64,000 bases of DNA from a virus (IMGVR_UViG_3300008120_000016:60720-124719), one strand, 5' to 3'. Shown: positions 29,501-56,551, counted from the stretch's first letter. Numbers and translations: made by a program. The notes: generated from the sequence alone by a model not told the origin.

Positions 29501-29844
29501 CAATCCCAAAATCCACCACCTTTTCCAGTACCTCCACCACCTTTAAAATATTCGTCAACATAGTCTGCACCAGGAAAATTTACAGATTGATTTGTATAAG
29601 GTTCTAACCATTCTTCCTGACCTGTGTTTGCTTTAGCTTTTATTCTGTAGGGTGTAGGGTTATATAATGTATCAGATGGTATTCTATAATGAGTTCCATT
29701 AGGAGGTAATCCATTTTTAAAACCATCCATAGAAATATATGGTACAGTTTTTTTACCAGGTAAACGACTTAATCCCTTATTAGGGATGTGTCCAGTTTTA
29801 TCTTTATTCTGAGCAATTATTTTATTTAAATTAGGCCTCTCCAT
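26578..29844 (-). CDS. Internal virion protein, 1088 aa: LysM + L,D-transpeptidase (YkuD)-like + lytic transglycosylase-like domains
   Basis: LysM YVVKKGDTLSKIS...LIKANKIKDANVIGVNQKLILP (~28073-28205). YkuD-like VVDKKRGRLNVYK...YPVGTG...ALHSS...RLSNGCIN (~27560-27925). IYGTESNFG...SVGYTQL...DPSKAA (~26690-27200). Confidence 0.78.
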   Translation of the reverse strand: MERPNLNKIIAQNKDKTGHIPNKGLSRLPGKKTVPYISMDGFKNGLPPNGTHYRIPSDTLYNPTPYRIKAKANTGQEEWLEPYTNQSVNFPGADYVDEYFKGGGGTGKGGGFWDWLRNLFGGKGGRGSFDCPGDVCSPGKMKFEKPSRVKKNRGSGGGGSSFINPFDGNDDEICYDEEGNEVPCYQGSSVIYYGGGGGGGNNGGGGGCDPSTGVCKPPAPEEGKVSPVYEDAIVGDFPKNYKQAVNEYNQLHPDYDYYQNKIKEEGPAYNELHPPGPGASSPEASIKSNTAKYGGWLDKYNIGGEKPTTEKPATENPSSTNTSKEEVSSGLPSDYRARWNNLHSYIRDQVGYDEANPIAVQPKVRGFNETKTFVDQYNKLNPNATFSTDWIPHVENELTGTIIPNKTKFAERRGMQQKQPLVGGRRDIIGYRMLGNTYKYPDMTLVSSQGSKDLGIPGANYQMDAGSAYSSNGSSSGRNIANEGMPQHVYVGGKQVKLTIIPGEGAWIRNPETGDVSKYDPQRYNPKSGRYLKHGGWLNNYFNEGGSYVVKKGDTLSKISRETGVSMNDLIKANKIKDANVIGVNQKLILPVAGQPAVEQQWQNWSDINKYNQYLNSLQDEGDYTGDERRIAAYYKNQPEEVYTVVDKKRGRLNVYKGDKLINTYPVGTGASAGDAQTVTRIVNGKVDWDAGNKMTGAGVYTVAGSQKKDPHYSDAASWNFANDKGENVAMALHSSFGDRTAKIKDKDIANNRLSNGCINGICYNLDELYNTGYTVGNKMYVLPEDRGNSFQIVDGKPVLRVNTNINNYNQYKDAKGRVQKGQGVNRSVNTLVYKPIQGIFDRGKFEKNVYTPWDYNDQKEYENTTKPYYTSLVNNKKAIMQAAGIPSDVYNEIARMAFGIYGTESNFGDEHLAPNNLIKAIGKIDYGKTIGNLFSGKFKVETDDAVGGPDVKSKAETYRADDKNQSVGYTQLRWAQLNNDEKKALAKVGITKNTDFLDPSKAAMGTAVVLGVRYNQQLTSEQKKDMWKHLPTKWNKRSNYASRVKNNAQYLTFRQYDDKRKMGGEPCYQCGGMYDNGGSTGWLNEYL

Positions 29845-36686: not shown

Positions 36687-36731
36687 ATTATTAATTTACA
36701 AAAAATCTTTGAAGTTTCCTACTTAAACTTT
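36687..36731 (-). promoter_or_regulatory. Conserved intergenic element copy B (candidate phage promoter) AAAGTTT-N7-AAACTTCAAAGATTTTTT-G-TAAATTAATA
   Basis: Near-identical to 18937-18982. Lies upstream of the ATG at 36677. Confidence 0.6.
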
Positions 36732-37935
36732 AAATGTTTACATTATAAGTAAACTCGGATGTTTTACCTTTTTCTACATCATGTACTTCCATAACAGCTT
36801 GACGCTTTGACCCAATATACTTATTATGATAATGCCAATAATCAGTTGAACAAAGGCTAGGAAGATGTTTAATAGCAAACCCATTGGTTTCATTTTCGCT
36901 GACATATTCTGTTGTTTTTTTAGAATGGAAATGTCCAGTGTAACATGTACGATATTTAGTTCTGCCCCAAAGTTCAGGATATTCTGTAGCATATACAAGT
37001 GGAGTATTCTTTTTATTTACATCTCCGTGTTCAAACGCAAAAAAGTTATGACCATAAACTACAACTTTTCTTTCTGAGTATTCAACATCAAAATAGATCG
37101 AATAGTCTTCTTTGTCAAAACATTTTGAAAGAGCATGAGCTAAATGAAAAGAACTAAGTCGGTCGTGATTACCAGGAACATATACAACATGTAAGTTTTC
37201 ACAAAATTGTTTAAGATAACATACAGACCAATATAGTGCATCAAATGCTTGTTTATAAGCTTGATGTGCTAACATACTATTATTTATAGGAGTTCCAGAT
37301 GTAGTAGTTCCATTAAACGTATCCATATTTAAAACATCTCCACCAATAACGTAAACAATTTTGTTTAGTTTGTGTGACATGTAAGCTCTATGTACAAGAT
37401 CTTTTACTGCTGTTTTAAAATTATCTACTATATCATCATTGTATTCTTTACCAAAATGCAAATCCTGTATTGACAAAATACCAACAGTATCATTTTCAAA
37501 TTTATTATTGATATATATCTCACCACTAAGAGGTTGATATTCAGGCTCAAAATTGGCTATTACTTCAGCTAGTATATCTTTTTCATCTTTTCTTATAGCA
37601 GTGACAAAAGCTGACACATGCCAACCATCATGTTTTTGTTTGTTCCAGTAATTACTAAGCTTCCATTTAGTAGTATCTATTTTAAGAAGCTGAATTATTT
37701 CTTCAGCAGTTTTTGGTTCTATAGAAAATATCCCCATTATTTCAGCTTCACCTTTAGCAACATTTTCTTTAACTTCAACAACTCTATCTTTAATTATTGG
37801 TTCTGGATAAGATTCTGTTAATACTTTTTGTTTAATTTCTTTATACTTTTTAATAGGGATTCCAAGTCTTACTGAACAATAGTAATCAGATTTTTTCCAC
37901 CTTATGGAATTTTTAACTTGATCATAAATATTCAT
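36730..37935 (-). CDS. Calcineurin-like metallophosphoesterase
   Basis: Motifs DLHFG, GGDVLNMD, VPGNHD, FEHGD, TGHFH. Start moved from 37977 to the ATG at 37935 because the called extension runs through a terminator. Confidence 0.85.
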   Translation of the reverse strand: MNIYDQVKNSIRWKKSDYYCSVRLGIPIKKYKEIKQKVLTESYPEPIIKDRVVEVKENVAKGEAEIMGIFSIEPKTAEEIIQLLKIDTTKWKLSNYWNKQKHDGWHVSAFVTAIRKDEKDILAEVIANFEPEYQPLSGEIYINNKFENDTVGILSIQDLHFGKEYNDDIVDNFKTAVKDLVHRAYMSHKLNKIVYVIGGDVLNMDTFNGTTTSGTPINNSMLAHQAYKQAFDALYWSVCYLKQFCENLHVVYVPGNHDRLSSFHLAHALSKCFDKEDYSIYFDVEYSERKVVVYGHNFFAFEHGDVNKKNTPLVYATEYPELWGRTKYRTCYTGHFHSKKTTEYVSENETNGFAIKHLPSLCSTDYWHYHNKYIGSKRQAVMEVHDVEKGKTSEFTYNVNI

Positions 37936-37960
37936 ATGGCATATATTATTTAATTTGTAT

Positions 37961-37995
37961 AAAAAATAGAGCCCCAACGTAGAAACGTCAGGGCT
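37961..37995 (-). terminator. Intrinsic terminator
   Basis: AGCCCTGACGT-TTCT-ACGTTGGGGCT (11-bp stem with 2 G:U) followed by CTATTTTTT, downstream of the glycosylation genes. Confidence 0.8.
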
Positions 37996-38043: not shown

Positions 38044-38829
38044 TTATTCTTTGCATGGTCTAGCTAAATGCTTATATCCCAAAAAATCAACATACTTTCT
38101 AGTATCCGGAACACTCCAATATTCACCTAAAAAACTCATGTTTTTTTCATAGTGTCCCATATCTCTGTTAGTATAAATATGATGCAAGTGTAATAATTCA
38201 GCATCAATTCTATATTTTTTTAAATTAAGTGCAGAACATTTGTGAGCAAACGCATCATCTTCAGCCCCCCATCCTTTAAATCTTTCATCATACCCACCAA
38301 TACAATAAAAATTTTTAGCACTTAAAATATTTACACCACCGTGTATATTAACAATATACTCTAATTTTCTGGTTTTTTCGTTATTTCCTGTATTAATATC
38401 TTCATTATTTACAAAGTTTTTTGTCTCATCTTCTGACATATAATACATTGCATCTTTAAAAGGTAGAACAAAATAGTCGTCAAAATACTCATAGTATTCT
38501 TCAATGTTTTCAAGTACTTTTTTTTCTATTAAACAATCAGCATCTCCAAATATTATGTAGTCAGCACAAAAAGATGATTGACTTATATTGTAACCTATAT
38601 TAAACAAAAAACCTCTGTTAAAATGATCATCGTTTGTGTTAACTTTAAAATGTTTATGATAACAACCTGATACCTCACTCATATCAGTTTTTGAATCTTG
38701 CTCTACAATTATAATCTTACAATCTTTTAAAAATCTATTATAATACTTGATAGTATAAAATAAATTTCTTTTTCTATCAGGTGTAGAATACCTAAAAGGT
38801 ATAACAACACATATTTGTTTTTTATCCAT
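38044..38829 (-). CDS. GT-A glycosyltransferase, GT7/GT2 galactosyltransferase-like
   Basis: VVIPFR, IIIVEQD, FNRGFLFNIG, DxD motif FGDAD, GGYDERFKGWGAEDDAF. Confidence 0.88.
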   Translation of the reverse strand: MDKKQICVVIPFRYSTPDRKRNLFYTIKYYNRFLKDCKIIIVEQDSKTDMSEVSGCYHKHFKVNTNDDHFNRGFLFNIGYNISQSSFCADYIIFGDADCLIEKKVLENIEEYYEYFDDYFVLPFKDAMYYMSEDETKNFVNNEDINTGNNEKTRKLEYIVNIHGGVNILSAKNFYCIGGYDERFKGWGAEDDAFAHKCSALNLKKYRIDAELLHLHHIYTNRDMGHYEKNMSFLGEYWSVPDTRKYVDFLGYKHLARPCKE

Positions 38830-39429
38830 TTAAAACCAAGTATTAATTTTACAACCTAATTTTGTTAAATCAGATATGATTTCATTTTTTGTATCGACAG
38901 ATTCTTTTGGATACATTCTTCCTTCATGAAACTCTACATAAAACTCTTTAATTTTAGAAGCAGTGTTTTCTTTAATCATTTTTCTTAAAATTTCAAACTC
39001 TGCTCCTTCAATATCTAGTTTGCATATTATATGAGAATCATTTGGTAAATCATTTACAAATTTGCTAAGATCAATACTAGGAATTGTAACTTGTGTTTCA
39101 TATCCTAAATGATTAAATCCAATTCCTTGTATAGATGACCCCCACCCATCAATGTTTGAAGCACCATCGGTTGGAGAACCACTTCCACTTTTAGTATGAT
39201 TTTCTTGATTAAATGTAACAATTCCATCTTCTACCCAAACAGCTTTGTTAAAAGAAGTTATATCTAATGAGTATTTGTTACGAAGTAATTCAACTCTTTC
39301 TTCAATAAAGCAAGCTGGATTAGCTTCAAATGAATAAATTTTATAATCTGTAGTAATTATTCCATTGTTTATAAAATATTCCAATCCTTCTCCGTGATGA
39401 AATCCACAATCTAAAAATATTTTTTTCAT
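38830..39429 (-). CDS. FkbM-family SAM-dependent methyltransferase
   Basis: IFLDCGFHHGEG, IYSFEANP, NKAVW, CKLDIEGAEFEIL. Confidence 0.88.
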   Translation of the reverse strand: MKKIFLDCGFHHGEGLEYFINNGIITTDYKIYSFEANPACFIEERVELLRNKYSLDITSFNKAVWVEDGIVTFNQENHTKSGSGSPTDGASNIDGWGSSIQGIGFNHLGYETQVTIPSIDLSKFVNDLPNDSHIICKLDIEGAEFEILRKMIKENTASKIKEFYVEFHEGRMYPKESVDTKNEIISDLTKLGCKINTWF

Positions 39430-39431
39430 TA

Positions 39432-40082
39432 TTATTGGTTTATTAAAAAGTTAGAAGTTGAAATGTTTTTACCATGAATGTGCCAGATGATATTTTCTCG
39501 ATTATCAATTTCTGCTATATTACAATTTTTACACCAAGCATCCCTCCACATATGATCTTCAAATCCATAAATTGATTCAGATTCTAATACACACTTTAAT
39601 CCCTTTTTATTAAAAGCAAATGTAGGTGGCATATTAAAATCACAACCTTCTGGATTACCACCTAAGTTTGGTGCATTGATCCATCTTAAAATAGCTCCAT
39701 TCAATTGATATTTTATCTTAGATGACACAACATCTACAGATGGATTATTTTGAAAAAATTCTACTATTGTTTTAACATAATCTTTTTTGTAAATATCATC
39801 ATCGTCTATTTTAACAAACAAATCATAATTATCAAAATCAACTGATATAATTGAATTTGTGTAATTAAAATGTTGATGTTTATTTTCATTAATAACAATG
39901 TTTACATCATCTATATCATCATACAATATAGTATAGTCAGTATAATCATCTGCATCATGTGCAATATTAATAGAATGGAAAAGATTCTTATAGCTTTGAT
40001 TTTTAATATCAGCTATAGTACCCCTTAGCATTTTGTGTCTTTTGTAACTTGTTGTAAAGCACAATACTTTTAAATCAGACAT
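39432..40082 (-). CDS. GT2-like glycosyltransferase
   Basis: FTTSYKR...IKNQSY, FVKIDDDDIY, GFEDHMW. Confidence 0.75.
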   Translation of the reverse strand: MSDLKVLCFTTSYKRHKMLRGTIADIKNQSYKNLFHSINIAHDADDYTDYTILYDDIDDVNIVINENKHQHFNYTNSIISVDFDNYDLFVKIDDDDIYKKDYVKTIVEFFQNNPSVDVVSSKIKYQLNGAILRWINAPNLGGNPEGCDFNMPPTFAFNKKGLKCVLESESIYGFEDHMWRDAWCKNCNIAEIDNRENIIWHIHGKNISTSNFLINQ

Positions 40083-40990
40083 GAAATTTCTTTGGTTTTT
40101 AATAATTCTTCAACGTATTTGTAAGAACAAGATTGAGGATTTATATTTTCAAGTTTTACATCGTTATAAGGAAGATTTGTAAAATACGCTGCTTTAAAAA
40201 ATAAATCTTTTCTATCTTCTGTCACACCAGCATTATGAAATATAGGTGCCTCATTCCATCTATCAATGTAACAAGTAGCCCAACAAAAATCTAATCTATT
40301 ATCAACTCTTGTTGGATGACCAAACTTCCAAGCATTCCATAAAAGTGACCACATTCCTGCAGTCCACTTTTGAATAGCATACCCTTCACCTTTATAATTT
40401 GGTTCAGTATCACAAAAATGTTTGTAAAGTTTTATAGAATCTTTTTCAACTTTATCCCAATATTCAGGTGTAGTATTTTTTACAATATGCTGAGCACCTC
40501 CTGAATTTGGATTCATAATTCTAGGAATTAAAGGATCCATTTCCATTACACGACACATATCTAAATAAACATCTTCACCCTTACCAAAAATATAGTTATA
40601 ACCAATATAACCCACAGTATCACTTAAATACCAAGTATTATGGTATTCCATATCTTTAAAATTAACAGGTCTTGTGAAAATTATATCACAATCATGTAAA
40701 AACAAAGGCTGCGTAGTTAATTCAGGATAAGCAGTAAGATGCTGCTTCATTAAATTAAAATAAACAGAAGGAATGTAAAAGTGATCTTCTCTAGTATCAG
40801 GATAAAAAAAGAAACCAACATTATTATAATGTTGTTGTAGTTTTAACCAATCTGGAGGAACTTGCCCATAATGGGCACAAAGAATATTAATATCATTTGG
40901 ATTAACACCGTTTCTAATAAAGTTGTTAATCATTATTTCTACCTGCCATGTATAGTATGGTATAGCAGGTTGTGCACAAATAAACTTCAT
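40070..40990 (-). CDS. GT-A glycosyltransferase, putative protein O-glycosyltransferase (resembles plant HPAT/SERGT1, GT95/GT96)
   Basis: YYTWQVEIM, YIPSV, LFLHDCDIIFTRP (DxD), GGAQHI, QKWTAGMWSLLW. Motif order is recalled as similar to HPAT/SERGT1. The GT-A call is firmer than the family call. Confidence 0.55.
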   Translation of the reverse strand: MKFICAQPAIPYYTWQVEIMINNFIRNGVNPNDINILCAHYGQVPPDWLKLQQHYNNVGFFFYPDTREDHFYIPSVYFNLMKQHLTAYPELTTQPLFLHDCDIIFTRPVNFKDMEYHNTWYLSDTVGYIGYNYIFGKGEDVYLDMCRVMEMDPLIPRIMNPNSGGAQHIVKNTTPEYWDKVEKDSIKLYKHFCDTEPNYKGEGYAIQKWTAGMWSLLWNAWKFGHPTRVDNRLDFCWATCYIDRWNEAPIFHNAGVTEDRKDLFFKAAYFTNLPYNDVKLENINPQSCSYKYVEELLKTKEISCLI

Positions 40991-41010: not shown

Positions 41011-41142
41011 TTAAGCAGGAACAGCTGCTGATTGCGTAAGTCCTACAGCTTCAGCATATTTAAGATAGGTTTCAACACTGGCTTCTATAGTAATGCAACA
41101 ATTGGCATTAGGATTAATTGTTGTAGTTGTAGTAACTGGCAT
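41011..41142 (-). CDS. 43-aa microprotein with the shared C-terminal tag ([43 protein letters not shown])
   Basis: Translated by hand; below the ORF-track cutoff. Its C-terminal 23 aa match the two upstream genes. Confidence 0.85.
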
Positions 41143-41160: not shown

Positions 41161-41487
41161 TTATGCAGGAACAGCAGCTGACTGCGTCAAACCAACTGCC
41201 TCTGCGTATTTAAGATATGTTTCTATGCTTGCTATTATATTATCAGGAGTACACCTCCATGTAAAACCTTTATCTAAAAGTTTGTTTATTATTCCCATAG
41301 TATCAGTAACACTAATATTATTGTCATTAACAAATTTTAATAATTTGCAAACAATTCCTTCACCATTTACGGTATTACTTTCAACTAATCCCCTATCTAA
41401 AATAGTTAGATAATTAACCGGTCCTACAAAAGCTTTTAAATCTTCAATGCAATTGTAAGTACAACAAATAGGTCTTTGAGTTGGCAT
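41161..41487 (-). CDS. 108-aa protein with the shared C-terminal tag [23 protein letters not shown]
   Basis: ORF track. Internal LD(R/K)G repeat. Tag identical to that of 41507..41965. Confidence 0.8.
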
Positions 41488-41506
41488 AATTAATAATTTT
41501 TATAAG

Positions 41507-41965
41507 TTAAGCTGGCACTGCTGCACTTTGAGTTAAACCAACAGCTTCAGCATATTTTAAATAAGTTTCAATAGATGCAAATGTATAATCAGTATTTACA
41601 CCACAATCAGGACAGCATATATTACAAACAGTTGATACAATCCCTTTATCTAAAAGTAAATCAAGAACTTCAGTCCAACTAATAGTAGGATCGGCCACTT
41701 TAGAAGCTTTCATTTGATCAAACAATATATCAAAAGGACTTGTACAAGGTAAATCTAAATCTACATAATCATCACACCCTGCTTTTTTTATACGAATTGT
41801 ATTAGCTGCATCAGGTATTGTATTAGTTGTATATCCAGATATCATATCAGCTTTGCTAATACCGGAATCAAAAGGATTTAAAAAACCATCAGCATCAGAA
41901 AACAAAGAAAAAGTTGTATCAGATGATCCTGCTAATGTTAATTTTATTGTTGCAGATTTTGGCAT
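41507..41965 (-). CDS. 152-aa protein: type-A N-terminal domain + CCPDCG + shared C-terminal tag
   Basis: ORF track. N-terminal domain is paralogous to those of the 272-, 476- and 384-aa proteins. Confidence 0.8.
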   Translation of the reverse strand: MPKSATIKLTLAGSSDTTFSLFSDADGFLNPFDSGISKADMISGYTTNTIPDAANTIRIKKAGCDDYVDLDLPCTSPFDILFDQMKASKVADPTISWTEVLDLLLDKGIVSTVCNICCPDCGVNTDYTFASIETYLKYAEAVGLTQSAAVPA

Positions 41966-41998: not shown

Positions 41999-42817
41999 TT
42001 ATCCACAAAGTACCCAATTCCAAATTAATGGATCTAAAGTTCCTATTTGTTGTAATGTTAATGTTATAAATATACTTTGACCTGGTGCAACTGTAGAAGT
42101 TGGAGCAGGTATTATACCACCTTGATCACACAAAAATGTAGGACTATCTTGAACACTTGCACTTATATTTTCTAAAATTACACAAACACAATCTCCACCA
42201 ATTGGAGGAGTAGTTGTAGTTGATGTTGTTGAACTACAAATAGGTATTGTATTTGGAGACACTGTAAAATTAGTTAATGTCCATGTTTTAATACTATTAG
42301 GATCATTACAATCTAAAAGTGTTTTAGTTACATAATTTTGACTAGCAGAAATTGATCCTGTAGGTATAACTAATGATTCAGTAGTAGGAGAACCAATACT
42401 AGGAGTATAAGTAAAACTTAACGTAATCGGAAAAGGAGCAGGTGTAGGTAATCCATTAATTGTATATGCTATACCTACTGGTGCAAATTCTTCATCAAAC
42501 GAACCACCACATATTTTTGTAGATCCTGTTCCTAAACTTAGTACCAAACATTGAATCAATGAAGGTGTAGTTGTACTAGTTGTACCAGGATTAAACGGAT
42601 TAGTTATAGAAATAGTTATTGGATTTGTACAAGCTCCTACAGATGTTAAAGTAACACTTGTTGCAGTAGGATCGGTTAATGTAAAAAGTTCCCCTCCTCC
42701 CAAAAGACCTGCAGCTGTAGCAGTAGTAGGATTTATAGATCCCACATTTGGAGAAATTGTAAAAGTAGGTCCTAAACCAGAACCTAGAGGACTATTTAAT
42801 TGTACTAATATATTCAT
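41999..42817 (-). CDS. Thr/Cys-rich putative virion surface protein (type-A N-domain), 272 aa
   Basis: GPTFTI N-domain. TTSTTT linkers. PAPFPIT domain shared with the 704-aa protein. Confidence 0.75.
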   Translation of the reverse strand: MNILVQLNSPLGSGLGPTFTISPNVGSINPTTATAAGLLGGGELFTLTDPTATSVTLTSVGACTNPITISITNPFNPGTTSTTTPSLIQCLVLSLGTGSTKICGGSFDEEFAPVGIAYTINGLPTPAPFPITLSFTYTPSIGSPTTESLVIPTGSISASQNYVTKTLLDCNDPNSIKTWTLTNFTVSPNTIPICSSTTSTTTTPPIGGDCVCVILENISASVQDSPTFLCDQGGIIPAPTSTVAPGQSIFITLTLQQIGTLDPLIWNWVLCG

Positions 42818-42830
42818 TTTATATTAATTA

Positions 42831-43847
42831 TTATGGAACACAATCAAGATTGTTTGCACATGTTACTACACCACCGTTAACTACTATACCTAACTCAGTT
42901 ATAGCTGGTACTGTTTCAGAACAAACATAATCTGTAGTATTGCCTGCAAGAGAAACAGTGGTAAATCCAGAACCACCACATTGAGTATACTGATAGTTAA
43001 GTGGATCAGGAGTAGTATTTTCTACTGAGTAACATTTGCAAGGCGATGATGTTGTAGTAGAAGTTGTTGGGAAAAAACAATCAGGACATCCAGGACAAGA
43101 TGAACCAGTTGGCAACCATACCGCTGTATTACCATAACGAACAGTTGGTGGAATACATCCACAAACACATTTATATGTAATACTTCCTACTGTATCAATT
43201 GATACCCATTGACCTGTAACACAATCAATATATTCAGCAGCAGGTAGAGAACCACCAGCCATACTACTTGTTTGTGTTATTGTTATATCATATGCTTTAC
43301 ATTGAAGTGATCCTGGTGGACAACCAACACAAAGACTTGGGTCTATTATTATTGGTTCGTCAATAGTTGTAGTGGTTGTTGGAGCTGGAGGTATTGTTGT
43401 TGGAGCTTGTGTTGTTGGAAGAACAACGAAAGCACTACCACCATTATAAGTACAAGATACTGTTGTAGTACTTGTAGTAGAACTAGTAGTTGTGCTAGTA
43501 GAACTAGTAGTTGTAGTTGGTGCAATTGTTGTAGTTGTTGTTAAAATAGTAGCAGTCAATGTGCCAAATCTACAATCTCTTAATGTTGTTGTAGCTACTG
43601 GTCCTAATTTACAAATCTCATCATTAATGATTTGTATAATTTCACATAAAGTTGTACCATTTTTTATACCATAACATAGTAAATCTTCTCCTATATATCT
43701 TACACATTCGCAATCATACAACTCATCACATTGTTCTCCAATACAAGGAATAGTAGTTGTGCTTGTTGTACTAGTTGTAGTACAAGGTTTGTGACACGGA
43801 TTCGGATCACAACCACAACCAGAATTACATCCACAATTACATGACAT
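42831..43847 (-). CDS. Mucin-like Cys/Thr-rich protein (type-B N-domain), 338 aa
   Basis: MSCNCGC...CECVRYIGEDLLC. Long TTTTSSTSTTT tracts. CxCY module. Confidence 0.75.
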   Translation of the reverse strand: MSCNCGCNSGCGCDPNPCHKPCTTTSTTSTTTIPCIGEQCDELYDCECVRYIGEDLLCYGIKNGTTLCEIIQIINDEICKLGPVATTTLRDCRFGTLTATILTTTTTIAPTTTTSSTSTTTSSTTSTTTVSCTYNGGSAFVVLPTTQAPTTIPPAPTTTTTIDEPIIIDPSLCVGCPPGSLQCKAYDITITQTSSMAGGSLPAAEYIDCVTGQWVSIDTVGSITYKCVCGCIPPTVRYGNTAVWLPTGSSCPGCPDCFFPTTSTTTSSPCKCYSVENTTPDPLNYQYTQCGGSGFTTVSLAGNTTDYVCSETVPAITELGIVVNGGVVTCANNLDCVP

Positions 43848-43885
43848 TTTTATAAATTTTTATTACTTTAAAAAAATACTAATTA

Positions 43886-45316
43886 TTATCCACATTCAAA
43901 AAATGTATTTACCCAACCAGGACCAGGTTCAGTACTATTACCTACACCATAACAAATACGTCCTCCAGGAGCTACAATCTGAGCTACTTTAAGAACACCA
44001 TTACAATCTTTGTAATTTATAGAAAGTGGTGCATTTGTTACATTTTGCCATTGTTCACAACCAATACATGTTGCAGGAGCAACAGTCCAATCTCCAGTAG
44101 CTTGTAACAATAATGCTTGTATACCGGTAATTTGAATTATATCAGAACCTCCATTTGCAATTGGCCCTGGTGGAAGATAATCCTGTGCACATAGTAAATT
44201 AGGATAATCTACTGTTAATTCTATTGTAGAACCAGAAATATTTGTCACTTCATAACATTTACATTGATCATCGAAAACTCTTGCTGTAGTAGTTGTTGTT
44301 ACAAGACTACCTGCATTACAAGTATTTACAACACTATGTGTTTTAAGTGTACCAACAGAATCTTTAAAAACCATCCAATAAGTCCCGTCAGGTAAAGGAG
44401 TACCTGGAACTAAACCACCTGGAGCATAAGCAAAACTTCCTTCAGGACCTAGCAATGTCCAATCTGTATTTGCTAAAGCACCTGCTTCAGTTGAAAAAAC
44501 AAAAGGAGATGCTGAATAAGGAGGAACTCCTCCAACAGTACGAGCTATATCAACACGGAAGTTTACTCCACTACAATAAGTTCTGTAGACAAAATCAAAA
44601 GGAATAAATATAGTTCCATTTGTTGTTGTTGCTGTAAAACATGATCCTGTTATATTACCGGTTACATCAATATTAACTTGAGGAGCACCTGCTCCAGCAA
44701 TTCCTATTGTACCAGTATACCCTAATGGAACAGGTGGATCAAACTTAACATAAATTACTTTTGGGTTTGGATTAATAAATCCACCACTTGATGAATTAAA
44801 TGTAATACTAGTTGACCAAGGACCAGTTACAGATTCAGATATACCAAATACTATTGTTGGTGATTGTATAATAATATTACTATTTGGAAATAAATTTTGT
44901 CCTGTTAATGTAAATGATTTAATCCACGGAGTTCCAGGAATAACACAAGGATCAAAAAATTCAATTTGATTCACGTTAGACTGAATTACTCTTCGTGAAG
45001 AAATTGTGGTAGTAGATGTTGGATTTCCAGAAGATGTTGTGGTACTTGTTGTATCTTCAATTACACAACATCTTAACGGCTTACCACATAATCCTTCTAT
45101 TGTAACTTTTTTACTAGAACTGCATTGACCTCCTGTTGATTGTAATGTTATATTTTCAACATTATCATCTACAGTTACAATAGCTCCTGTAGGAGATAAT
45201 AAATCAATTAATGTAACTTGTGTAGGAAAAACAGTTCCTACGTTAGGAATAACATTAAATGTTGGACCTATTGAGGAACCACTTGGTAAATCTGTTATTT
45301 TTAATACTACTTGCAT
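43886..45316 (-). CDS. Thr/Cys-rich putative virion surface protein (type-A N-domain), 476 aa
   Basis: GPTFNV N-domain. Ig-like/beta-rich middle region. CKCY module. Confidence 0.75.
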   Translation of the reverse strand: MQVVLKITDLPSGSSIGPTFNVIPNVGTVFPTQVTLIDLLSPTGAIVTVDDNVENITLQSTGGQCSSSKKVTIEGLCGKPLRCCVIEDTTSTTTSSGNPTSTTTISSRRVIQSNVNQIEFFDPCVIPGTPWIKSFTLTGQNLFPNSNIIIQSPTIVFGISESVTGPWSTSITFNSSSGGFINPNPKVIYVKFDPPVPLGYTGTIGIAGAGAPQVNIDVTGNITGSCFTATTTNGTIFIPFDFVYRTYCSGVNFRVDIARTVGGVPPYSASPFVFSTEAGALANTDWTLLGPEGSFAYAPGGLVPGTPLPDGTYWMVFKDSVGTLKTHSVVNTCNAGSLVTTTTTARVFDDQCKCYEVTNISGSTIELTVDYPNLLCAQDYLPPGPIANGGSDIIQITGIQALLLQATGDWTVAPATCIGCEQWQNVTNAPLSINYKDCNGVLKVAQIVAPGGRICYGVGNSTEPGPGWVNTFFECG

Positions 45317-45334
45317 TAATTAAATATTTATAAA

Positions 45335-47449
45335 TTAATCACAACCACCAGGAAGACATTGTATAGAAATACTAACACTATCAGTTGGATTTATAATAAC
45401 ATTTGGTACTTGTACAACTGGTTCAAATGTGAATTGTTGTGAATAAGTTGTTATGTTTCCAAATGTATCTGTAACTTCTACATACATTATTCCACAATTT
45501 CCTGTTCCTGGAGTATTACTATTAACATTTAATTGTATCAAATTAGTTGATCCAAAATTAATTACAGTATTTGTAAGACTTATAAAGCCAGATTGAGTAT
45601 TTGTTAAAGGATATGGTGCTGATAAAGTTAAATTATTACCATTTATACTAGAACTTAGTATACTACCACCACCACAATTTTCATTTCTTACAGTGACAGT
45701 AGCAGTACCACCAGTACCACCTGATGAACTAGTAGTTGTAGTTGGAGCAAATGGTCCATTGTATGCTAATTGATTTGATGGCACACTAGAACCATTAGAA
45801 CAAATTTGAACAATTCTAAATAATGTCGGTCCTGTAGGAATGGTAAATAAACGAGGTGATGTACAACTTCCTGTAAAACTACTCCATGTAGTTCCACCAT
45901 TAGTTGAACTTTCAATTGTTATGGCTTGACATGGTAAACAACCAGCACTTGTATCAGTGGTAAAATTAAGACTTAAATCACTTCCATTATTAACTATACT
46001 ATTAAATGTTGGAGCACAACAAATTTCATTTGCAGGACAAAATACAGAACTTACAAAACTAACACTCCAATCACCTGAGCTTGCTAAAGCAGAAGCTGTT
46101 GATGATGATATTTCTACTCTACAAGTATCTCCAGGTGCAACAACACCGCAATTTAAAGTACTTGTTCTACAAAATATTGCAGGACCGGGATCTATTGGGC
46201 TTTGACTAATATTTGTTATATCGTAACAATTACATCCACTAGGAGCAGCTGTTGTAGTACTAGTAGTTACAGTACTGCATAAAGGAATTGTACCAGGAGA
46301 TAAAACAAAGTTTGTTAATGTCCATGTTGTTATAGTATTTCTTTCTGTACAATCTAAAATTGTTCTTATTAGCCATTGATCACTTGCAGATGATGCACCT
46401 GTTGGTATAGTTAAATTTTCTACTGTAAATCCACCTGTAGAAATTGTATAATCAAAGCTATAAGTAATTGGGAAAGGTGCTGGTGCAGGAACTCCTCCCA
46501 CTAAATACATTATTGTTAAAACTCTAGTTTGTTCTAGTAAATCTTCACAAACATCACTATTTACTATATTACTAGCAACAACAACACAACCCAATGGTGG
46601 AGCTGCTGTGGTAGGAGCAGATGTAGTTGGTGCTGCTGTGGTAGGTGCTGCAGTAGTACTAGTCGTAGGAGCAGCTGTCGTAGGAGCACTAGTAGTTGGA
46701 GCAGCTGTTGTTGGTGCAATAGTTGTACTGGTTGAAGTTGTTTGACAATCGCCATCATCATTACATAGTACATTATTTGTATTAGTTATAAATTCATCTC
46801 CTGGTTCAAGAGAAACAATACTATTTTGTTTAGCACATATGTAAATTGTTTCAGTGGCATCAACATAACCATTACTATCTTGCCCTTCACAATTTTTATA
46901 AGTAAAATTTACACCATCTGTATTTGGCCCAGCATATACACTATAGCAATAACATGGTGCTGCTGTTGTCGGGGCAACTGTTGTACTAGTTGTCGGTGCT
47001 GCTGTAGTCGGAGCAATAGTGGTAGTACTAGTTGTGGGAGCTAAAGTTGTAGTAGTTGGTGCAACAGTTGTTGTTGTAGGTATACTAGTAGTAGTTGTAA
47101 TTGGAGGATTATTTAAACAACCAATAGGACCACTATATCCCGTTATACTACCAAACAATCGACAATCATTTATTACAAGATAACCATCTATAACACAATT
47201 AAGAGTAGTAGTTGTTGTTAAACAATTATCTAACCCTAATATTTGAATAATATTTTGAAAAACTTTTGTTACTCTATCACCTTTAACAACATTAATACAA
47301 TTAAGATTTCTTCCTGAATAAATGACACAATCAGACGATACAACAGTTTCGCATTCAGGAGGACATGTTGTAGTAGTACAAATTAAAGAAGATGCCACTG
47401 GTTTACAGCAACACTCTTTATTTTTTATTGGACCACAAGTACAGGACAT
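45335..47449 (-). CDS. Mucin-like Cys/Thr-rich protein (type-B N-domain), 704 aa
   Basis: SSDCVIYSGRNLNC..GD N-domain. Tandem PTTAA/PTTS repeats. CxCY modules. Confidence 0.8.
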   Translation of the reverse strand: MSCTCGPIKNKECCCKPVASSLICTTTTCPPECETVVSSDCVIYSGRNLNCINVVKGDRVTKVFQNIIQILGLDNCLTTTTTLNCVIDGYLVINDCRLFGSITGYSGPIGCLNNPPITTTTSIPTTTTVAPTTTTLAPTTSTTTIAPTTAAPTTSTTVAPTTAAPCYCYSVYAGPNTDGVNFTYKNCEGQDSNGYVDATETIYICAKQNSIVSLEPGDEFITNTNNVLCNDDGDCQTTSTSTTIAPTTAAPTTSAPTTAAPTTSTTAAPTTAAPTTSAPTTAAPPLGCVVVASNIVNSDVCEDLLEQTRVLTIMYLVGGVPAPAPFPITYSFDYTISTGGFTVENLTIPTGASSASDQWLIRTILDCTERNTITTWTLTNFVLSPGTIPLCSTVTTSTTTAAPSGCNCYDITNISQSPIDPGPAIFCRTSTLNCGVVAPGDTCRVEISSSTASALASSGDWSVSFVSSVFCPANEICCAPTFNSIVNNGSDLSLNFTTDTSAGCLPCQAITIESSTNGGTTWSSFTGSCTSPRLFTIPTGPTLFRIVQICSNGSSVPSNQLAYNGPFAPTTTTSSSGGTGGTATVTVRNENCGGGSILSSSINGNNLTLSAPYPLTNTQSGFISLTNTVINFGSTNLIQLNVNSNTPGTGNCGIMYVEVTDTFGNITTYSQQFTFEPVVQVPNVIINPTDSVSISIQCLPGGCD
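46597..46740 (-). repeat. Tandem pentapeptide repeats PTTAA/PTTS(A/T) encoded with diversified codons
   Basis: TTIAPTTAAPTTSAPTTAAPTTSTTAAPTTAAPTTSAPTTAAPP. Similar tracts occur at ~46960-47100, ~48195-48365 and ~50240-50360. Confidence 0.9.
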
Positions 47450-47467
47450 TTATTAAAATTTTAAAAT

Positions 47468-48622
47468 TTAAGGTGATGTGGTTGTTGAACAATATAGATT
47501 TGGTTGATCACAAGGGAATCTTTCAAGATCAAAACATGTTTGACTACCTACAGCATCAACAAGTGAACAAGGTGCACCAGGTAGATTAACTTCAGCACAA
47601 CAAATCTTTGTCTGGGTAAAGCCACCACTACGTGTTGTTGATGATGTAGTTGTAATTGCAGGACACCCGTTAATTGCTGTTATTACACCACTACCATTTA
47701 CTGTCATACATTTTATACCTTCCGAATAGAATCCACCAGTAACTGGAATTGTCATTGCAACATTTGTATATAAAATGCAACCTACTGCTAATGGAGCAGG
47801 ACATGGACTGTAATATTGAGATATAAGATTACCACTACAATTACATGCACTAGATGTAAAGTTATTTGGATCACATGTTTGTATACTATAACATAAATTA
47901 TGTATTGTTACAGGACGTGCTGTACTAGTTGTTGTTTCAGGAGGTAAAGTAGTAATAATACTTCCTGTTGTTGTATTAGTAACTCCACAAAATCCAAAAC
48001 AAGGAACATTTCCTACTATAGTAAATCCTTGACCTAAAATTGAGCCTTGAGCAGCACAAAATTCTTTTGTACTATCTGCAGCTATTGTTCCTGTTTCTGA
48101 ATTACCATCGCAATTTAAAAATGTGTAAGATCTATTTGGAAAACCAAAAGGATCTGTATTAGCTATTGTATAACATCTACATACAATTGGAGCAGCTGTA
48201 GTTGGTGCTAATGTAGTTGTTGGTGCTGCGGTAGTAGGGGCTGCCGTAGTTGGAGCTATTGTAGTTGTACTTGTAGTTGGTGTTGCAGTACTTGTACTTG
48301 TAGTTGGAATTATAGGTATTGTAGTAGTTGTAGTTATACCTGATGATGTTGTAGTTGTAACAACAGGAATAGTACCTGGTGTAACAGGTACAGTTTTGTC
48401 AACATAATAATCATTACATAGTTGACTTTTTGATTTTAATCTAACTTTTACTACATCATTTGGTACAGATATAGTATACCCACCTGGAGGTAAAAATGAT
48501 GATTTTGGAACATTGGTAGGCCCGTTTCCTATAACAACTCCTAAAGCATTTAAATAGAATACATCATACGGACCCAAGTCCGTACCTGATATAGTCATTA
48601 ATATATTTATAAGTTTAGCCAT
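47468..48622 (-). CDS. Mucin-like Thr/Cys-rich protein (type-A N-domain), 384 aa
   Basis: GTDLGPYDVF...VPNDVVKVRLKS..LCNDYYVD N-domain. PTTAA repeats. CRCY module. Confidence 0.8.
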   Translation of the reverse strand: MAKLINILMTISGTDLGPYDVFYLNALGVVIGNGPTNVPKSSFLPPGGYTISVPNDVVKVRLKSKSQLCNDYYVDKTVPVTPGTIPVVTTTTSSGITTTTTIPIIPTTSTSTATPTTSTTTIAPTTAAPTTAAPTTTLAPTTAAPIVCRCYTIANTDPFGFPNRSYTFLNCDGNSETGTIAADSTKEFCAAQGSILGQGFTIVGNVPCFGFCGVTNTTTGSIITTLPPETTTSTARPVTIHNLCYSIQTCDPNNFTSSACNCSGNLISQYYSPCPAPLAVGCILYTNVAMTIPVTGGFYSEGIKCMTVNGSGVITAINGCPAITTTSSTTRSGGFTQTKICCAEVNLPGAPCSLVDAVGSQTCFDLERFPCDQPNLYCSTTTSP

Positions 48623-48631
48623 TTTTTACAT

Positions 48632-50629
48632 TTATGGTATTGGAGGTCCATCTAATGGTGGACAAATGGGATTTGTAGGATCTGTAGGAATTTTTGTTAT
48701 AAACAACCATTTATTTTGTACTACAGATGTCATTGTCCAATCAACAGATGTTCCAAGTATAGGGTATGCTGGCGGAGTAATAGCTGTTATATAACCATAT
48801 AATGTACCACCTGCTACTGTGTTATTTCCTAAGTTTGCACCTATTTCCCATCTATTTGCCGATAGATTAAAATAAACATATGCGATAGGAACTGTAGGAA
48901 CATTAAATACAATATCTGTTATTGTGTAATAAGGTTTTCCACCAAATAAAGTAATCGATCCTGTATAATTTACGTAGTTTTTACCAGCTTCTCCAGTATC
49001 AACTACAAAACATAACTTTATAGGACAACCAGTATAATTACTACATTCACCATTAGTGTACACTATAGGAGTACCAAATACACCAAAGTTTGGATATTCG
49101 ATATTTCTATTAGTGATTGTACAGAAACCAGCATAGTTAGTACCTGCTTCTGCAATTGTCCATTCTGCAAATTCACCATTACAAGTAGTATAAGTTCCAG
49201 TTCTAGGATTACTATCTGGATATTCTACAATTACACAATTACAGCATTGACCAAGCGAAGTTTCTTTAATATATTGTCCTGTTGAAGTAACAACAGTCCA
49301 TGTACCTTCCAATGTTGATGAAAGTAAATATCCTACTAAAGTACCTGAAGTTGCATTAACTCTTGCTTCCCATCTAAAACCAGTCCAAAAAACAAGTAAA
49401 ACATCAGGACCACTTGTAAAATTCCAAGTGTAAGCATATTTACCATTAATTTTTTGTATGTACCCTGAATCATCTATATAAGGTATTCCAGTGGAAAAAG
49501 GTTCAATACAAGGAGGTCCACCATCATAAGGTTCAACACAAGGAACTTTTCCGACAGCACAAATTAAATCAGGACATGGTCCTTGTTGAGAAACTGCAAC
49601 ACCCGTTTTATCACAATCATCAATATCACCAATACATTGCCATCCTGTAATCCCACTTATTGGAACATAAGTAGTTGTATTTAATATATAAACAAGAGGT
49701 GGTTTTGGAGGGGGTTGTGTAATTGTCCATTCCCATCTATTATTTGTATTTGACCATATAATTGTCATAGGAAAACCACCATATGTAAATGAATAAGATG
49801 GTTTATTATTTGTAATACCTGTTTGAGTAATTGTTTGACCTTCACCTGCACCTCCCAAAGAAGGAAGACCAACAGCTTCACCTGCAATACTAACACATAA
49901 TGATGTAATACATCCTACACTTATTGATACCTCACCAAAAGCTTTATCACAATTACTATTAAAACCACTTGGATTATATACACATGTCCATGGTGTTGTA
50001 TTGGATATTGGTGTTGGAGTATCATCATCTAAATACGCATAAAAAGAGGTTACTGTATTATTATCATTACAATCTAATAAAACCCTCCATGTTTGTGATG
50101 CAGTATCCCATTTTACACATCCATTTGCTGCAAAAGTATAAATAGGTTTACCATTTTCTATACCATTTACTTCTAATATTTCAGTAAATGGTGCACTTGC
50201 CGATCCTCCGTCAAAACTTATACATAATGGTTCAGGTACAGCTGTAGTAGTACTTGTTGTAGGGGCAGCTGTTGTAGGTGGTATAGTAGTCGTTGTAGGT
50301 GCTATAGTAGTTGTCGTAGGTGGTATAGTAGTTGTCGGAGCTATTGTAGTAGTAGGAACAGATAATAATGTAACAGCAATATCAAAATAACAACAACGAT
50401 CTGGAGGAAATAACTTTGCTAATATTTTAAATATAATATCACAAAGAGGGTCGCCTTTTTCTATAAAAGAACAGGGATAATCTGATCCTGCCCATTTAAC
50501 ACAACATATATCAATAACATCATCTCCACATGGATCTTTCGGATTACAATCTGGTAAGCATGTTACACCAGGTGGTAAACAAAAAGCACAAGGATCACAA
50601 TTTGGAGATTTGTTACAAGTACAAGACAT
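48632..50629 (-). CDS. Mucin-like Cys/Thr-rich protein (type-B N-domain) with four repeated beta-rich modules, 665 aa
   Basis: CCVKWAGSDYPC..KGD N-domain. PTTTIAP repeats. Four LC...(N/G)(G/N)KxxY modules, most followed by an RWE-like motif. Confidence 0.78.
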   Translation of the reverse strand: MSCTCNKSPNCDPCAFCLPPGVTCLPDCNPKDPCGDDVIDICCVKWAGSDYPCSFIEKGDPLCDIIFKILAKLFPPDRCCYFDIAVTLLSVPTTTIAPTTTIPPTTTTIAPTTTTIPPTTAAPTTSTTTAVPEPLCISFDGGSASAPFTEILEVNGIENGKPIYTFAANGCVKWDTASQTWRVLLDCNDNNTVTSFYAYLDDDTPTPISNTTPWTCVYNPSGFNSNCDKAFGEVSISVGCITSLCVSIAGEAVGLPSLGGAGEGQTITQTGITNNKPSYSFTYGGFPMTIIWSNTNNRWEWTITQPPPKPPLVYILNTTTYVPISGITGWQCIGDIDDCDKTGVAVSQQGPCPDLICAVGKVPCVEPYDGGPPCIEPFSTGIPYIDDSGYIQKINGKYAYTWNFTSGPDVLLVFWTGFRWEARVNATSGTLVGYLLSSTLEGTWTVVTSTGQYIKETSLGQCCNCVIVEYPDSNPRTGTYTTCNGEFAEWTIAEAGTNYAGFCTITNRNIEYPNFGVFGTPIVYTNGECSNYTGCPIKLCFVVDTGEAGKNYVNYTGSITLFGGKPYYTITDIVFNVPTVPIAYVYFNLSANRWEIGANLGNNTVAGGTLYGYITAITPPAYPILGTSVDWTMTSVVQNKWLFITKIPTDPTNPICPPLDGPPIP

Positions 50630-50631
50630 TA

Positions 50632-52161
50632 TTATCCATTATTTAAACATTCGCAATATCCAGGTAAACTAGAATATGTTATAGTAGCACTAGGTTGTCC
50701 TGATGTTATACTAACAGTTGTATTACATTGTATACACGCTGTAAAATTTGTTGGAGTTGAGGCATCAACTGCTTCAATTACTTTTGAAAACAATGTTCCA
50801 TCAGGTCCTGAATATTCAACAACTAAATTTTCATTTGGTAAATGAGGTGCTGGTATTATTGCTAATCTACCATTCACTAATGCATTCAAAAGAGGATTTA
50901 ATGGATATACAAAAGTCGTAGTTGTTGGAACAGGATTATTAAATGATTGTATTTGTTTAGTAACAGTTTTACTACAAACTGTTCCTTTGTATTCTAAACA
51001 TCCTGTAACTGTAATTGTCCAAGGAACTTGAACATTTAAATTTTGAATATTTATTGTTAAACCAGTTGGTGATTCTGCAGCAGTTTTTAAATTAAATGTT
51101 TCTGTATAAATAGCACCATTACCATCAGATACTTGTATTGTAGACATTGTTGCACAATTACTAAAATACGACGGAATTGTACAATATGAATTAAAAACTA
51201 TATTAATAGTACCTGATTCTATAGTTCTATAAGCATTAAAACCTAACACAAAACTACTACAATCTACGGTAATTGATCCTTTTAAATCAACAACTGCAGC
51301 TCTTATATCACACACTGTTAACCATAAATTTTGCAAAGATTGACCTAAATTATTTACAACAGGATTCCAACCTGGTATATTACTCATTAAGCCATTTTGA
51401 CTTAAAGCATTATAAGAAGATAAATAAGTACATTGTTGACCAACACCGGAATTTAGTTCTGTATTGTTACCGAGAATTTCTCTCAAACGACAAAATTCTA
51501 CATCTATTTCTTGTAACATTGTTACAATAGAAACTGGATTATTAGCAACCAATGTTCCAAAACTGCAAAAAGGAGTTACAGAAGGTAATTCAAAATCTGG
51601 TTTTAACTCAAGTGTATTAATTCTAGTTTCGTGATTTTCAATTTGACTTGTATGAGTATTAACAAGAGTTTTAAGTGTGCAATATGAATTTGCAAGTAAT
51701 ACAGCATAATCACTTATTGGTAAAGACGTGATTAACAAACCTGTATTAGAATCAGTGTATTGTAAACATTCTGGAAGAACTAACTCACCACTTGAACTAA
51801 AACCATCTTCAAAAGCAAATGATTTTGCAAATGATTGAACCATTGGCATTGCTCCACCCCCACCTCCACTACAACATACTTTATCTATAAGTAATTGAAG
51901 TATTGCACTTAAAGTTTTTGCTGGAGGAACAGCTTGAGGACCACAATAAATATCATTTATTAAACATGTTACATCTACATCATCTAATGAAACACTATTT
52001 TGAAAATCACAAACAATTGTAGCAAGTTTATAAACAACATCAGAAACAGAATCACCTTTACATAAATTAATGCAAGATATGTCTGGTCCTTGCCATATCA
52101 CACAATTAGATGATATAGGTAGGCAATTTTCTTTTTCTGAACTTGACCTTACAGGTTTCAT
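50632..52161 (-). CDS. Cys-rich structural protein (type-B N-domain), 509 aa
   Basis: ISSNCVIWQGPDISCINLCKGDSVSDVVYKL. Coiled-coil-like middle region. Confidence 0.7.
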   Translation of the reverse strand: MKPVRSSSEKENCLPISSNCVIWQGPDISCINLCKGDSVSDVVYKLATIVCDFQNSVSLDDVDVTCLINDIYCGPQAVPPAKTLSAILQLLIDKVCCSGGGGGAMPMVQSFAKSFAFEDGFSSSGELVLPECLQYTDSNTGLLITSLPISDYAVLLANSYCTLKTLVNTHTSQIENHETRINTLELKPDFELPSVTPFCSFGTLVANNPVSIVTMLQEIDVEFCRLREILGNNTELNSGVGQQCTYLSSYNALSQNGLMSNIPGWNPVVNNLGQSLQNLWLTVCDIRAAVVDLKGSITVDCSSFVLGFNAYRTIESGTINIVFNSYCTIPSYFSNCATMSTIQVSDGNGAIYTETFNLKTAAESPTGLTINIQNLNVQVPWTITVTGCLEYKGTVCSKTVTKQIQSFNNPVPTTTTFVYPLNPLLNALVNGRLAIIPAPHLPNENLVVEYSGPDGTLFSKVIEAVDASTPTNFTACIQCNTTVSITSGQPSATITYSSLPGYCECLNNG

Positions 52162-56100: not shown

Positions 56101-56551
56101 ATGCTGCTAGAGCAGATGTAAGATAACCAGCTGTTGCATGATTACCCCAACCATATGCTGTATCCCAATTTGATATTTGTGTATTTGTAATTGCTTTTAC
56201 AGCGGCAGGTACTGTAGGATCAGTTTCTGTAAAACTAGTTAAATAACCTGCAGGGTTTGTTAATCTTGGATAATAATTAGCTACAAGATAATTTATTAAA
56301 TCTGTTTGTGCTGTTAAAGTACCTGAAATTGAACCCCAAGTAAGAGAAGGAGCAATACCACTGTTCCACGTGGAACCTGTCCAAAAATATGGAGTTAGAA
56401 GTGTTGTATCGTAAACCTGATATCCAATATCACTTATACCTAATGTAGCACCTAATGCTGTTCTTTGAGCAGTAGTAACATTGTGTAATCTGCTATTTAA
56501 AAGCTGATTAGCAACTAGATCAACATCGTGTAAATATTTTTTTAGTGGCAT
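53198..56551 (-). CDS. Tail fibre / receptor-binding protein, 1117 aa
   Basis: Repeats R(N/S/T)ITINGxxxDLxAxRxW (x3), QY(L/I/W)RGD (x4), WGSI(S/T)GTL..QTDL (x2) and DWNA..G...ILNKP (x2). CBM5/12-like YLIGDLVYYSGNVYEC...YW. Confidence 0.8.
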   Translation of the reverse strand: MPLKKYLHDVDLVANQLLNSRLHNVTTAQRTALGATLGISDIGYQVYDTTLLTPYFWTGSTWNSGIAPSLTWGSISGTLTAQTDLINYLVANYYPRLTNPAGYLTSFTETDPTVPAAVKAITNTQISNWDTAYGWGNHATAGYLTSALAASTYVPLNRNITINGTTFDLSADRSWTISTAATTWGSITGTLSSQTDLQNALNAKFNNPTGTTLQYLRGDGSLATFPTIPAAQVNSDWNAVSGVQEILNKPLLATVATSGDYNDLLNLPIIPSAILTALPWSANHTTATGNEYLIGDLVYYSGNVYECIANNDSIIPTSTSYWVNLGAGFPLIQEPVDWNATTGNNQILNKPAIPTVGTWGGLNYPTWVSGTPFVKMTGVGTFALDTNTYLTSISSLDVTTALGYTPVTNARSITINGTSQDLTADRTWSVGTVTSVGLTMPAAFNVGSSPVTGAGTLAVTGAGLPSQYIRGDGSLADFPTNVGGGSSVNYYLNGSVSQGTFGGDVYYELSKVPVVGGGTTFTRLDAQGNGYIASFITDAGDPNLLQIPGGNFHVEFYFSASSGGGSPSFYTEIYKVSNTNVFTFIASDSAFPEGITNGTSIDVYYTTISVPQTPLLATDRLAIRIFVTTSGRNVVLHTENGTLSELITTFSTGLASLNGLSVQTQFFTQGTSGTDFNISSALDTHTFNLPFASASANGKLSIADWLDFKSKQSALNGTGFVKAIGTSISYDNTNYTPESRTITINGLAQDLSANRTWSVGDILSTGSYADPSWITSLDWSKITNVPALGGINSLNGLTGTSQTFANDTNVIINSAGTVHTLGWSGTLADSRIASAANWNSKEPGIALGTTLQYWRGDKTWQTLDKSAVGLSNVDNTSDLNKPISTATQTALNAKEDSIAAGTILQYWRGDKTWQTLNTAAVPESGNLYYTDARARQSISLTTIGSSGAATYNNTTGVLNVPTYGGVGGSGFGYTLIMGFNVTALAASETYVMGTLYGSGAITLFENRPSRWVLCPKVGNIVSASLVVQLNSASYGSPSTSQMQIRVHNITQNTNSPIDTTYQITSGLFSGSPPARNTFYNITPLQVNQGDQLQVRVITPAWTTAPSTMSMNVILFIE

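Follow-up and report, generated by a model that had tools for sequence, protein, structure and literature searches.

The viral DNA considered here, a window of 64,000 nucleotides (nt) (IMGVR_UViG_3300008120_000016:60720-124719), makes up the 3' half of an IMG/VR virus record of 124.7 kb and ~96% completeness. Its GC content is ~31% and all of its long open reading frames (ORFs) lie on the minus strand, to which every feature below belongs. One of them, a 306-amino-acid (aa) ORF running from ATG to stop at 40070-40990 in the late region, within the structural module, is the subject of this report: its product (hereafter the target) belongs to a large family of predicted GT-A glycosyltransferases (GTs), phrog_4417, and we propose that it places the first O-linked sugar on threonine (Thr) residues of virion proteins. 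Single-sequence searches of Pfam, NCBIfam and PDB sequences with the target gave no match, and a 20-kb part of the window found no counterpart among cultured phages by megablast. The profile of phrog_4417, a family of function unknown, aligns with residues 1-299 on its positions 1-291 of 293 (E 1.6e-71, 241.8 bits). The family spans 1,107 clusters at 90% identity (845 representatives at 50%), with at least 594 loci in IMG/VR and 134 in prokaryotic genomes, both retrieved by the signature pattern QxWTAGMW, and 77 records of cultured phages; the full-length profile match, the number of homologous clusters and the number of IMG/VR loci mark the gene as more than a chance ORF. Annotated copies among those examined were all labelled 'hypothetical'. 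A literature search covering HPAT in phages, poly-Thr, virion glycosylation, iLp84/PLE3 and capsid N-acetylhexosamine (HexNAc) found no description of the family, nor of the pairing of enzyme and tag set out below. When the family profile was run against PDB sequences, it returned spurious multi-repeat TALE matches and sub-significant hits to geminin and GNPTAB, all of which were rejected.

The AlphaFold2 model of the target (pLDDT 97.4, pTM 0.93) has a GT-A-like fold with a DxD motif, opens with the Rossmann strand beta1 (residues 2-8) and carries no N-terminal extension; as modelled, the protein is soluble and without a membrane anchor. Five motifs picked out in an earlier note made from the DNA alone are all found in the target, in the order stated there: YYTWQVEIM (residues 12-20), YIPSV (72-76), LFLHDCDIIFTRP (96-108), GGAQHI (164-169) and QKWTAGMWSLLW (207-218). 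Judged by alignment, they make up the conserved core of this large family, with Y72, D102, G165, Q167, M213, W214, H252 and K266 invariant across 72 sequences (target numbering) and Y12, W15, Q16, D100, G164, A166, Q207 and W209 conserved in at least 90%. The DxD motif, D100-C101-D102 (40685-40693), directly follows strand beta4 (LFLH, 96-99) and would form the binding site for metal and nucleoside-diphosphate (NDP) sugar. Further along lie the conserved GGAQ loop (G164-Q167; 40490-40501), the QxWTAGMW family signature (Q207-W214; 40349-40372) and the H252-N-A-G255 ... K266 element (40193-40237), whose histidine closes strand 250-252 in the model and, by analogy with GT8 enzymes, may serve as third metal ligand, K266 perhaps contacting the diphosphate.

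Among solved structures the top neighbourhood is GT8/GT24-like, with Foldseek template-modelling (TM) scores, by query, of only 0.44-0.54. The fold neighbours are retaining GT-A enzymes (glycogenin, Skp1 alpha-galactosyltransferase, LgtC, the UGGT catalytic domain, the LARGE1 xylosyltransferase domain and GlyE), from which the family nevertheless differs: the HxxGxxKPW motif of GT8, with its lysine three residues past the glycine, is replaced by H252-x-x-G255 with a conserved lysine 11 residues past it, and none of 145 members (72 in set A1, 73 in set A2) matched PF01501 (GT8) at E<=1. The target itself gave no PF01501 match at that threshold, and PF00535 (GT2) was likewise absent from all 72 and all 73, so that the GT8 or GT2 best matches which the earlier note named as evidence against its own assignment did not appear.

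Immediately upstream of the target is a gene for a 43-aa mini-protein (41011-41142) that starts MPVTTTTT and ends in a 23-aa tag, seen by translation and blastp, which is shared with the C-termini of the next two small proteins, of 108 and 152 aa (41161-41965); homologues of the 152-aa protein stand upstream of the GT in 8/77 related viral loci. Beyond these lie five consecutive Thr/Cys-rich proteins of 272, 338, 476, 704 and 384 aa (41999-48622), mosaic paralogues of 13-20% Thr with dense poly-T/S tracts and no Pfam or PHROG family, which are candidate acceptors; the one of 338 aa is encoded at 42831-43847. Downstream of the Thr-rich genes the target gene is thus, as had been noted earlier, the first to encode an enzyme, the three small tagged genes alone intervening. 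The Thr-rich run as a whole extends over 41999-52161, reaches 9.5% cysteine, has no Pfam or PHROG family and swaps modules in mosaic fashion: by blastp the 272-aa protein, for example, has its N-terminal 70 aa in common with that of the 476-aa protein and a block of 165 aa in common with the 704-aa protein. The run has the look of a fibre or decoration family that is diversifying.

The same arrangement recurs across the family. ORFs were called in 80 IMG/VR loci whose homologues are 43-75% identical to the target, and a tract was scored as dense where at least 8 of 10 residues were serine (Ser) or Thr. The same-strand gene directly upstream (position -1) encoded such a tract in 74% of 74 viral loci, the share falling to 23% at -2, 19% at -3 and 6% at -4, and to 0-4% at the downstream positions +1 to +6. 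These tracts are Thr-dominated and typically 20-100 residues long, and the median gap between the upstream gene and the GT is 18 nt. By blastp the upstream proteins fall into 30 unrelated clusters, 20 of them tract-bearing; with tracts spread over unrelated families, the conserved partner of the enzyme is therefore the tract rather than any particular protein family. The enrichment at -1 was replicated, for stand-alone forms, in an independent sample of 80 loci taken from genomes of prokaryotes (31-49% identity), with tracts in 67% at -1, none at -2 to -4, 30% at -5 and 46% at -6, which is the layout of a siphovirus prophage, its tail tube gene at -1 and its capsid gene about five genes farther upstream.

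Cultured phages bear the association out, for the GT gene sits in the structural module of phiFL1A, iLp84, phiCTP1, Planchet, RQ1 and P1046 as it does in the phage of the window. Cultured carriers include phages of Enterococcus (phiFL1A and VPE25-type phages), Lacticaseibacillus (iLp84, PLE3 and R3.3), Lactococcus (P1046), Staphylococcus (RQ1) and Chryseobacterium (MA9V-3). In phiFL1A the tail tube protein ends in ...NGTTTTTSTTTTTTSSTTTTTTTQASSK and the capsid protein in ...GETTTTTKPTTTTTKPTTTTTTTQG; in iLp84 the capsid ends in ...VPTTTTTTTSK and a tail protein in ...GETTTTTTTSK; equivalent tails or tracts occur in P1046, RQ1, phiCTP1 and Chryseobacterium phage MA9V-3. Enzyme and tails vary together. 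Many phages encode homologues of the phiFL1A tail tube protein (50-60% identity). Searched with the A1 profile, phiFL1A, iLp84 and R3.3 yield the GT (E 1e-97 to 1e-99), and in each of the three both capsid and tail proteins carry poly-Thr tails. The same profile finds no GT in three Streptococcus prophages, Bassarid, phiJL-1, ATCC8014 and AS1, and in these seven the homologous capsid and tail proteins lack poly-Thr tails (0/7). R3.3, which has the enzyme, and Bassarid, phiJL-1 and ATCC8014, which do not, belong to one genus, Coetzeevirus, so tag and enzyme have been gained or lost together within a single genus. Five complete genomes of carrier phages gave no match to the GT2, GT1/4 or GT8 Pfam families, while the controls were recovered; if a phage enzyme glycosylates these tails, it must therefore be the target-family GT that acts on the peptide. 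A separate observation concerns AS1, deposited as 'Aeromonas phage AS1' (locus L175; PV831789.1): a 5.6-kb stretch has the gene order of a Lactobacillus plantarum Coetzeevirus and the capsid C-terminus is identical to that of Bassarid, which together make the Aeromonas host label look doubtful, and its tail tube protein has an extra C-terminal domain of ~80 aa.

We put the probability that the target is an initiating Thr O-glycosyltransferase for virion proteins at roughly 70%. The proposal that it initiates on peptide had been made in the earlier note and gains support from the positional enrichment, from the co-variation of GT and poly-Thr and from the lack of the other three GT families in those five genomes. 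The target would be a soluble, cytoplasmic, metal-dependent GT-A enzyme, probably retaining, that moves the first sugar from an NDP-sugar to the hydroxyls of Thr (and Ser) in the poly-Thr tracts that virion proteins carry, either ahead of assembly or as it proceeds. Its acceptors in this phage would be the five fibre-like Thr/Cys-rich proteins upstream, and possibly the 43-aa mini-protein with its TTTTT run; enzymes encoded downstream would then extend and methylate the glycan, the outcome being a mucin-like, extended coat or stalk that is protease-resistant or shielding.

The putative tailoring enzymes follow the target consecutively and without gaps. A GT2-like protein of 216 aa (39432-40082), whose gene start overlaps the target stop by 13 nt, matches Glycos_transf_2 below the cutoff (E 2.4e-4, 21.5 bits) and phrog_8858, a glycosyltransferase family, and is proposed to extend the glycan. 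It is succeeded by an FkbM-type methyltransferase of 199 aa (38830-39429; PF05050, E 5.9e-9; phrog_8156, methyltransferase), proposed to carry out sugar O-methylation, and by a galactosyltransferase-type enzyme of 261 aa (38044-38829) that is GT7C/GT2_2-like (PF02709, E 2.4e-11; PF10111, E 2e-9) and for which glycan extension is again proposed; its GT7C-like domain type is also fused to the target family in other proteins.

Several observations weigh against this proposal. The contrast between positions -1 and +1 has a Fisher p of 2.5e-21, a value that overstates independence because the loci are phylogenetically related, and a tract at -1 is missing from roughly one viral locus in four. In the window itself the tracts are short, at 10-25 residues, and lie in the interior of the proteins; three small genes stand between the GT and the genes for the tract-rich proteins, and the major head (capsid) protein (62547-63992) has no tract at all. 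Blastp finds the GT2-like, FkbM and GT7-like genes of the window as partners in just 0-3/77 family loci, so the composition of the cassette is specific to this lineage. Fold similarity does not fix the acceptor, the genomes of the small carrier phages exclude only three GT Pfam families, and we found no biochemical or mass-spectrometric data in the literature for any family member or carrier phage.

Four other activities deserve consideration. The target might extend a glycan that a host enzyme, or one of the adjacent GT2- and GT7-like enzymes, had begun, or might use another acceptor altogether; its nearest solved folds do include extending GT8 enzymes (LgtC, LARGE1 and XXYLT1), and two further GTs are encoded in the window. 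Against this stand the conserved neighbour of the family, which is a poly-Thr tract and not another GT, and the five complete genomes that combine the GT and poly-Thr tails with no GT2, GT1/4 or GT8 match, and we regard extension as unlikely.

Modification of a host envelope glycan such as teichoic acid, O-antigen or capsule, leading to superinfection exclusion or serotype conversion, is a common role among phage GTs (those acting on teichoic acid are reviewed in PMC9863714), and many carriers here are temperate phages of Firmicutes. The gene, however, is found inside late structural operons, closely coupled to genes for capsid, tail or fibre proteins, rather than in lysogeny or moron regions, large phages of virulent type carry it as well, and the co-variation with poly-Thr tails would go unexplained, so that this role appears quite improbable. 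A Stealth-like hexose-1-phosphate transferase, phosphoglycosylating Thr/Ser or a glycan, has sub-significant signals as its sole basis and is slightly less credible again. Glycosylation of phage DNA at hydroxymethylated bases as a defence against restriction is the most far-fetched of the four, for although DNA-hypermodifying phage GTs are widespread (bioRxiv 10.1101/2023.12.21.572611), the ~96%-complete genome has no TET/JBP or thymidylate-synthase/hydroxymethylase (ThyA-family) match, the gene sits in a structural module and its association with poly-Thr would be left without explanation.

The earlier note had gone further than initiation on peptide and likened the target to two plant enzymes: HPAT (hydroxyproline O-arabinosyltransferase, GT95), which transfers L-arabinofuranose to peptidyl hydroxyproline, and SGT1 (SERGT1, peptidyl-serine alpha-galactosyltransferase, GT96). 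For HPAT the assignment holds at a remote, superfamily-like level and fails by the Pfam threshold. PF23452, the HPAT model, gave no match to the target at E<=1 and none in the target's own genome at E<=10; since the model does not reach it, the target is not a GT95 member by the Pfam criterion. Nor was PF23452 found in 10 other records or genomes with homologues or in 401 Bacteroidota genomes, negatives that are weak, the control genomes being uninformative for a eukaryotic family. HPAT is all the same the only glycosyltransferase Pfam family to fall below E 0.01 for any member when the 72 A1 sequences were scanned singly. The hit is to P0219, a member with full-length identity of 39% to the target: at 21.9 bits it stays short of the 23.9-bit cutoff, and the alignment is collinear, pairing residues 9-242 with profile positions 9-230 of 307. 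Few members touch the model at all (2/72 in A1 and 1/73 in A2, the latter being P0219 itself), and none of the 85 relatives of P0219 has a precomputed PF23452 annotation; an attempt to bridge from the target family to true HPAT sequences by way of these relatives failed.

Comparison by features and predicted structure is more generous. Ranked on language-model features, the 30 nearest named clusters of the ESM Atlas include 20 labelled HPAT (a label borne by a minority of their members), six labelled DUF7164 and none labelled GT8. A Chlorophyta cluster, 99% PF23452, superposes with a TM score of 0.75 over 282 residues in a search of predicted models whose results, given with no residue-level alignment, the tool itself offers as leads only. 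LP65 Orf49, a phage member of the target family at 19% identity, scores 0.76 and is thus about as close as the algal HPAT cluster. That cluster is closer than any solved GT8/GT24 enzyme (0.54 at most), a comparison that is merely indicative across different pipelines. We know of no solved GT95 structure. A GT-A-like fold has been predicted for GT95 (PMC8476585), and GT95 and GT96 are described as related, the only and indirect link to SGT1, HPAT being type II membrane-anchored Golgi enzymes (PMC8012813). The target family is probably remote kin of the HPAT lineage and not a member of it. Like HPAT and SGT1 of plants and algae, the target is proposed to place the first sugar on hydroxy-amino acids of repetitive, extended tracts, and HPAT is its nearest named family by both features and predicted structure. 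Unlike HPAT, it falls below the Pfam threshold, comes from phages and bacteria and is predicted to be soluble rather than Golgi-anchored; the family's genomic association is with poly-Thr tracts and not with motifs rich in proline or hydroxyproline (Hyp), and the acceptor that the data imply is poly-Thr in place of the Hyp or Ser-Hyp4 of the plant enzymes.

Other protein O-glycosylation systems offer partial parallels. In Gram-positive bacteria the glycosylation of serine-rich-repeat adhesins is initiated by GtfA/B, which is of GT-B type. The pneumococcal GlyE of that system just extends, and its substrates are secreted bacterial adhesins as against phage virion proteins here. Demonstrations of virion glycosylation are, to our knowledge, confined essentially to mycobacteriophages, where the modification affects antibody recognition. 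According to papers that cite this work (Freeman et al. 2023, Cell Host Microbe; cited in PMC12619734 and PMC10877033), phage-encoded GTs act there on the C-terminal ends of capsid and tail-tube subunits. On those descriptions this is the closest biological precedent, since the Firmicute relatives of the present phage bear poly-Thr tails at the same positions and, as in phage virion O-glycosylation systems generally, a GT stands beside structural genes whose products offer candidate acceptor sites. The differences lie in the hosts (Firmicutes and Bacteroidota), in the unannotated enzyme family phrog_4417 and in a portable poly-Thr tag that co-varies with the enzyme.

The family occurs in phages of Enterococcus, Staphylococcus, Lactococcus, Lactobacillus, Clostridium and Bacteroidota. 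The odds appear about even that this distribution reflects a widespread system of tag and transferase, in which a phage and bacterial branch of the GT95/GT96 lineage glycosylates portable poly-Thr tags on capsids, tail tubes and fibres, its domain having been recruited into lanthipeptide clusters of Bacteroidota. If so, phages of Gram-positive pathogens, of dairy and probiotic bacteria and of environmental Bacteroidota would commonly have glycosylated virions, and these would be predictable from sequence wherever a target-family gene accompanies poly-Thr tags. Such a system would matter for how immunogenic and how stable therapeutic phages are, and for the reading of virion proteomics and cryo-electron microscopy, where tails may be missing or extra density may appear, and it would supply a simple pair of enzyme and tag for glyco-engineering. 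It would also give a function to a large hypothetical family, and a prokaryotic relative to the structurally uncharacterised HPAT and SGT1 of plants, and would point to glycosylated lanthipeptides in Bacteroidota. The proposal can be checked in phages already in culture.

Elsewhere in the window, a tail fibre gene lies at 53198-56551. Between the glycosylation cassette and virion structural genes sits a DNA-repair exonuclease (metallophosphatase) at 36730-37977 (phrog_704, E 1.7e-50), homologues of which occur 2-6 genes downstream of the GT in 7/77 loci. Downstream of the structural genes, positions 1-34199 hold seven giant ORFs of 821 to >2,900 aa, virion structural protein families among them, with a transglycosylase domain at 26578-29844 and an M23-type peptidase domain at 18993-23693; they are reminiscent of the internal proteins that large podovirus-like phages eject.

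Beyond stand-alone enzymes, the longer members of the family are fusions to GT7C-like, GT25, GT6, GT61, methyltransferase and radical-SAM/SPASM domains, and these sugar-enzyme partners tie the target domain to sugar chemistry. In P0121, a close relative 658 aa long (57% identity to the target across residues 1-305), the GT domain is joined to radical SAM and SPASM, an unusual fusion that hints at peptide substrates resembling ribosomally synthesised and post-translationally modified peptides (RiPPs). The long fused forms of ~500-610 aa, in which the GT is coupled to a GT7C-like domain, have poly-Thr neighbours in 3% of cases. Examples are found in the chromosomes of Chitinophaga polysaccharea (L097:2417-8867) and Sphingobacterium detergens (L130:1624-8633). 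They sit in lanthipeptide-type clusters with a split LanB dehydratase (Lant_dehydr_C, E 6e-37), SPASM and HlyD, a setting that suggests glycosylated RiPPs in Bacteroidota. A LanC-like gene stands at +1 in 19/31 fused-form loci, and a neighbour of lanthipeptide type is present in 23 of the 31, as against none of 49 stand-alone loci.
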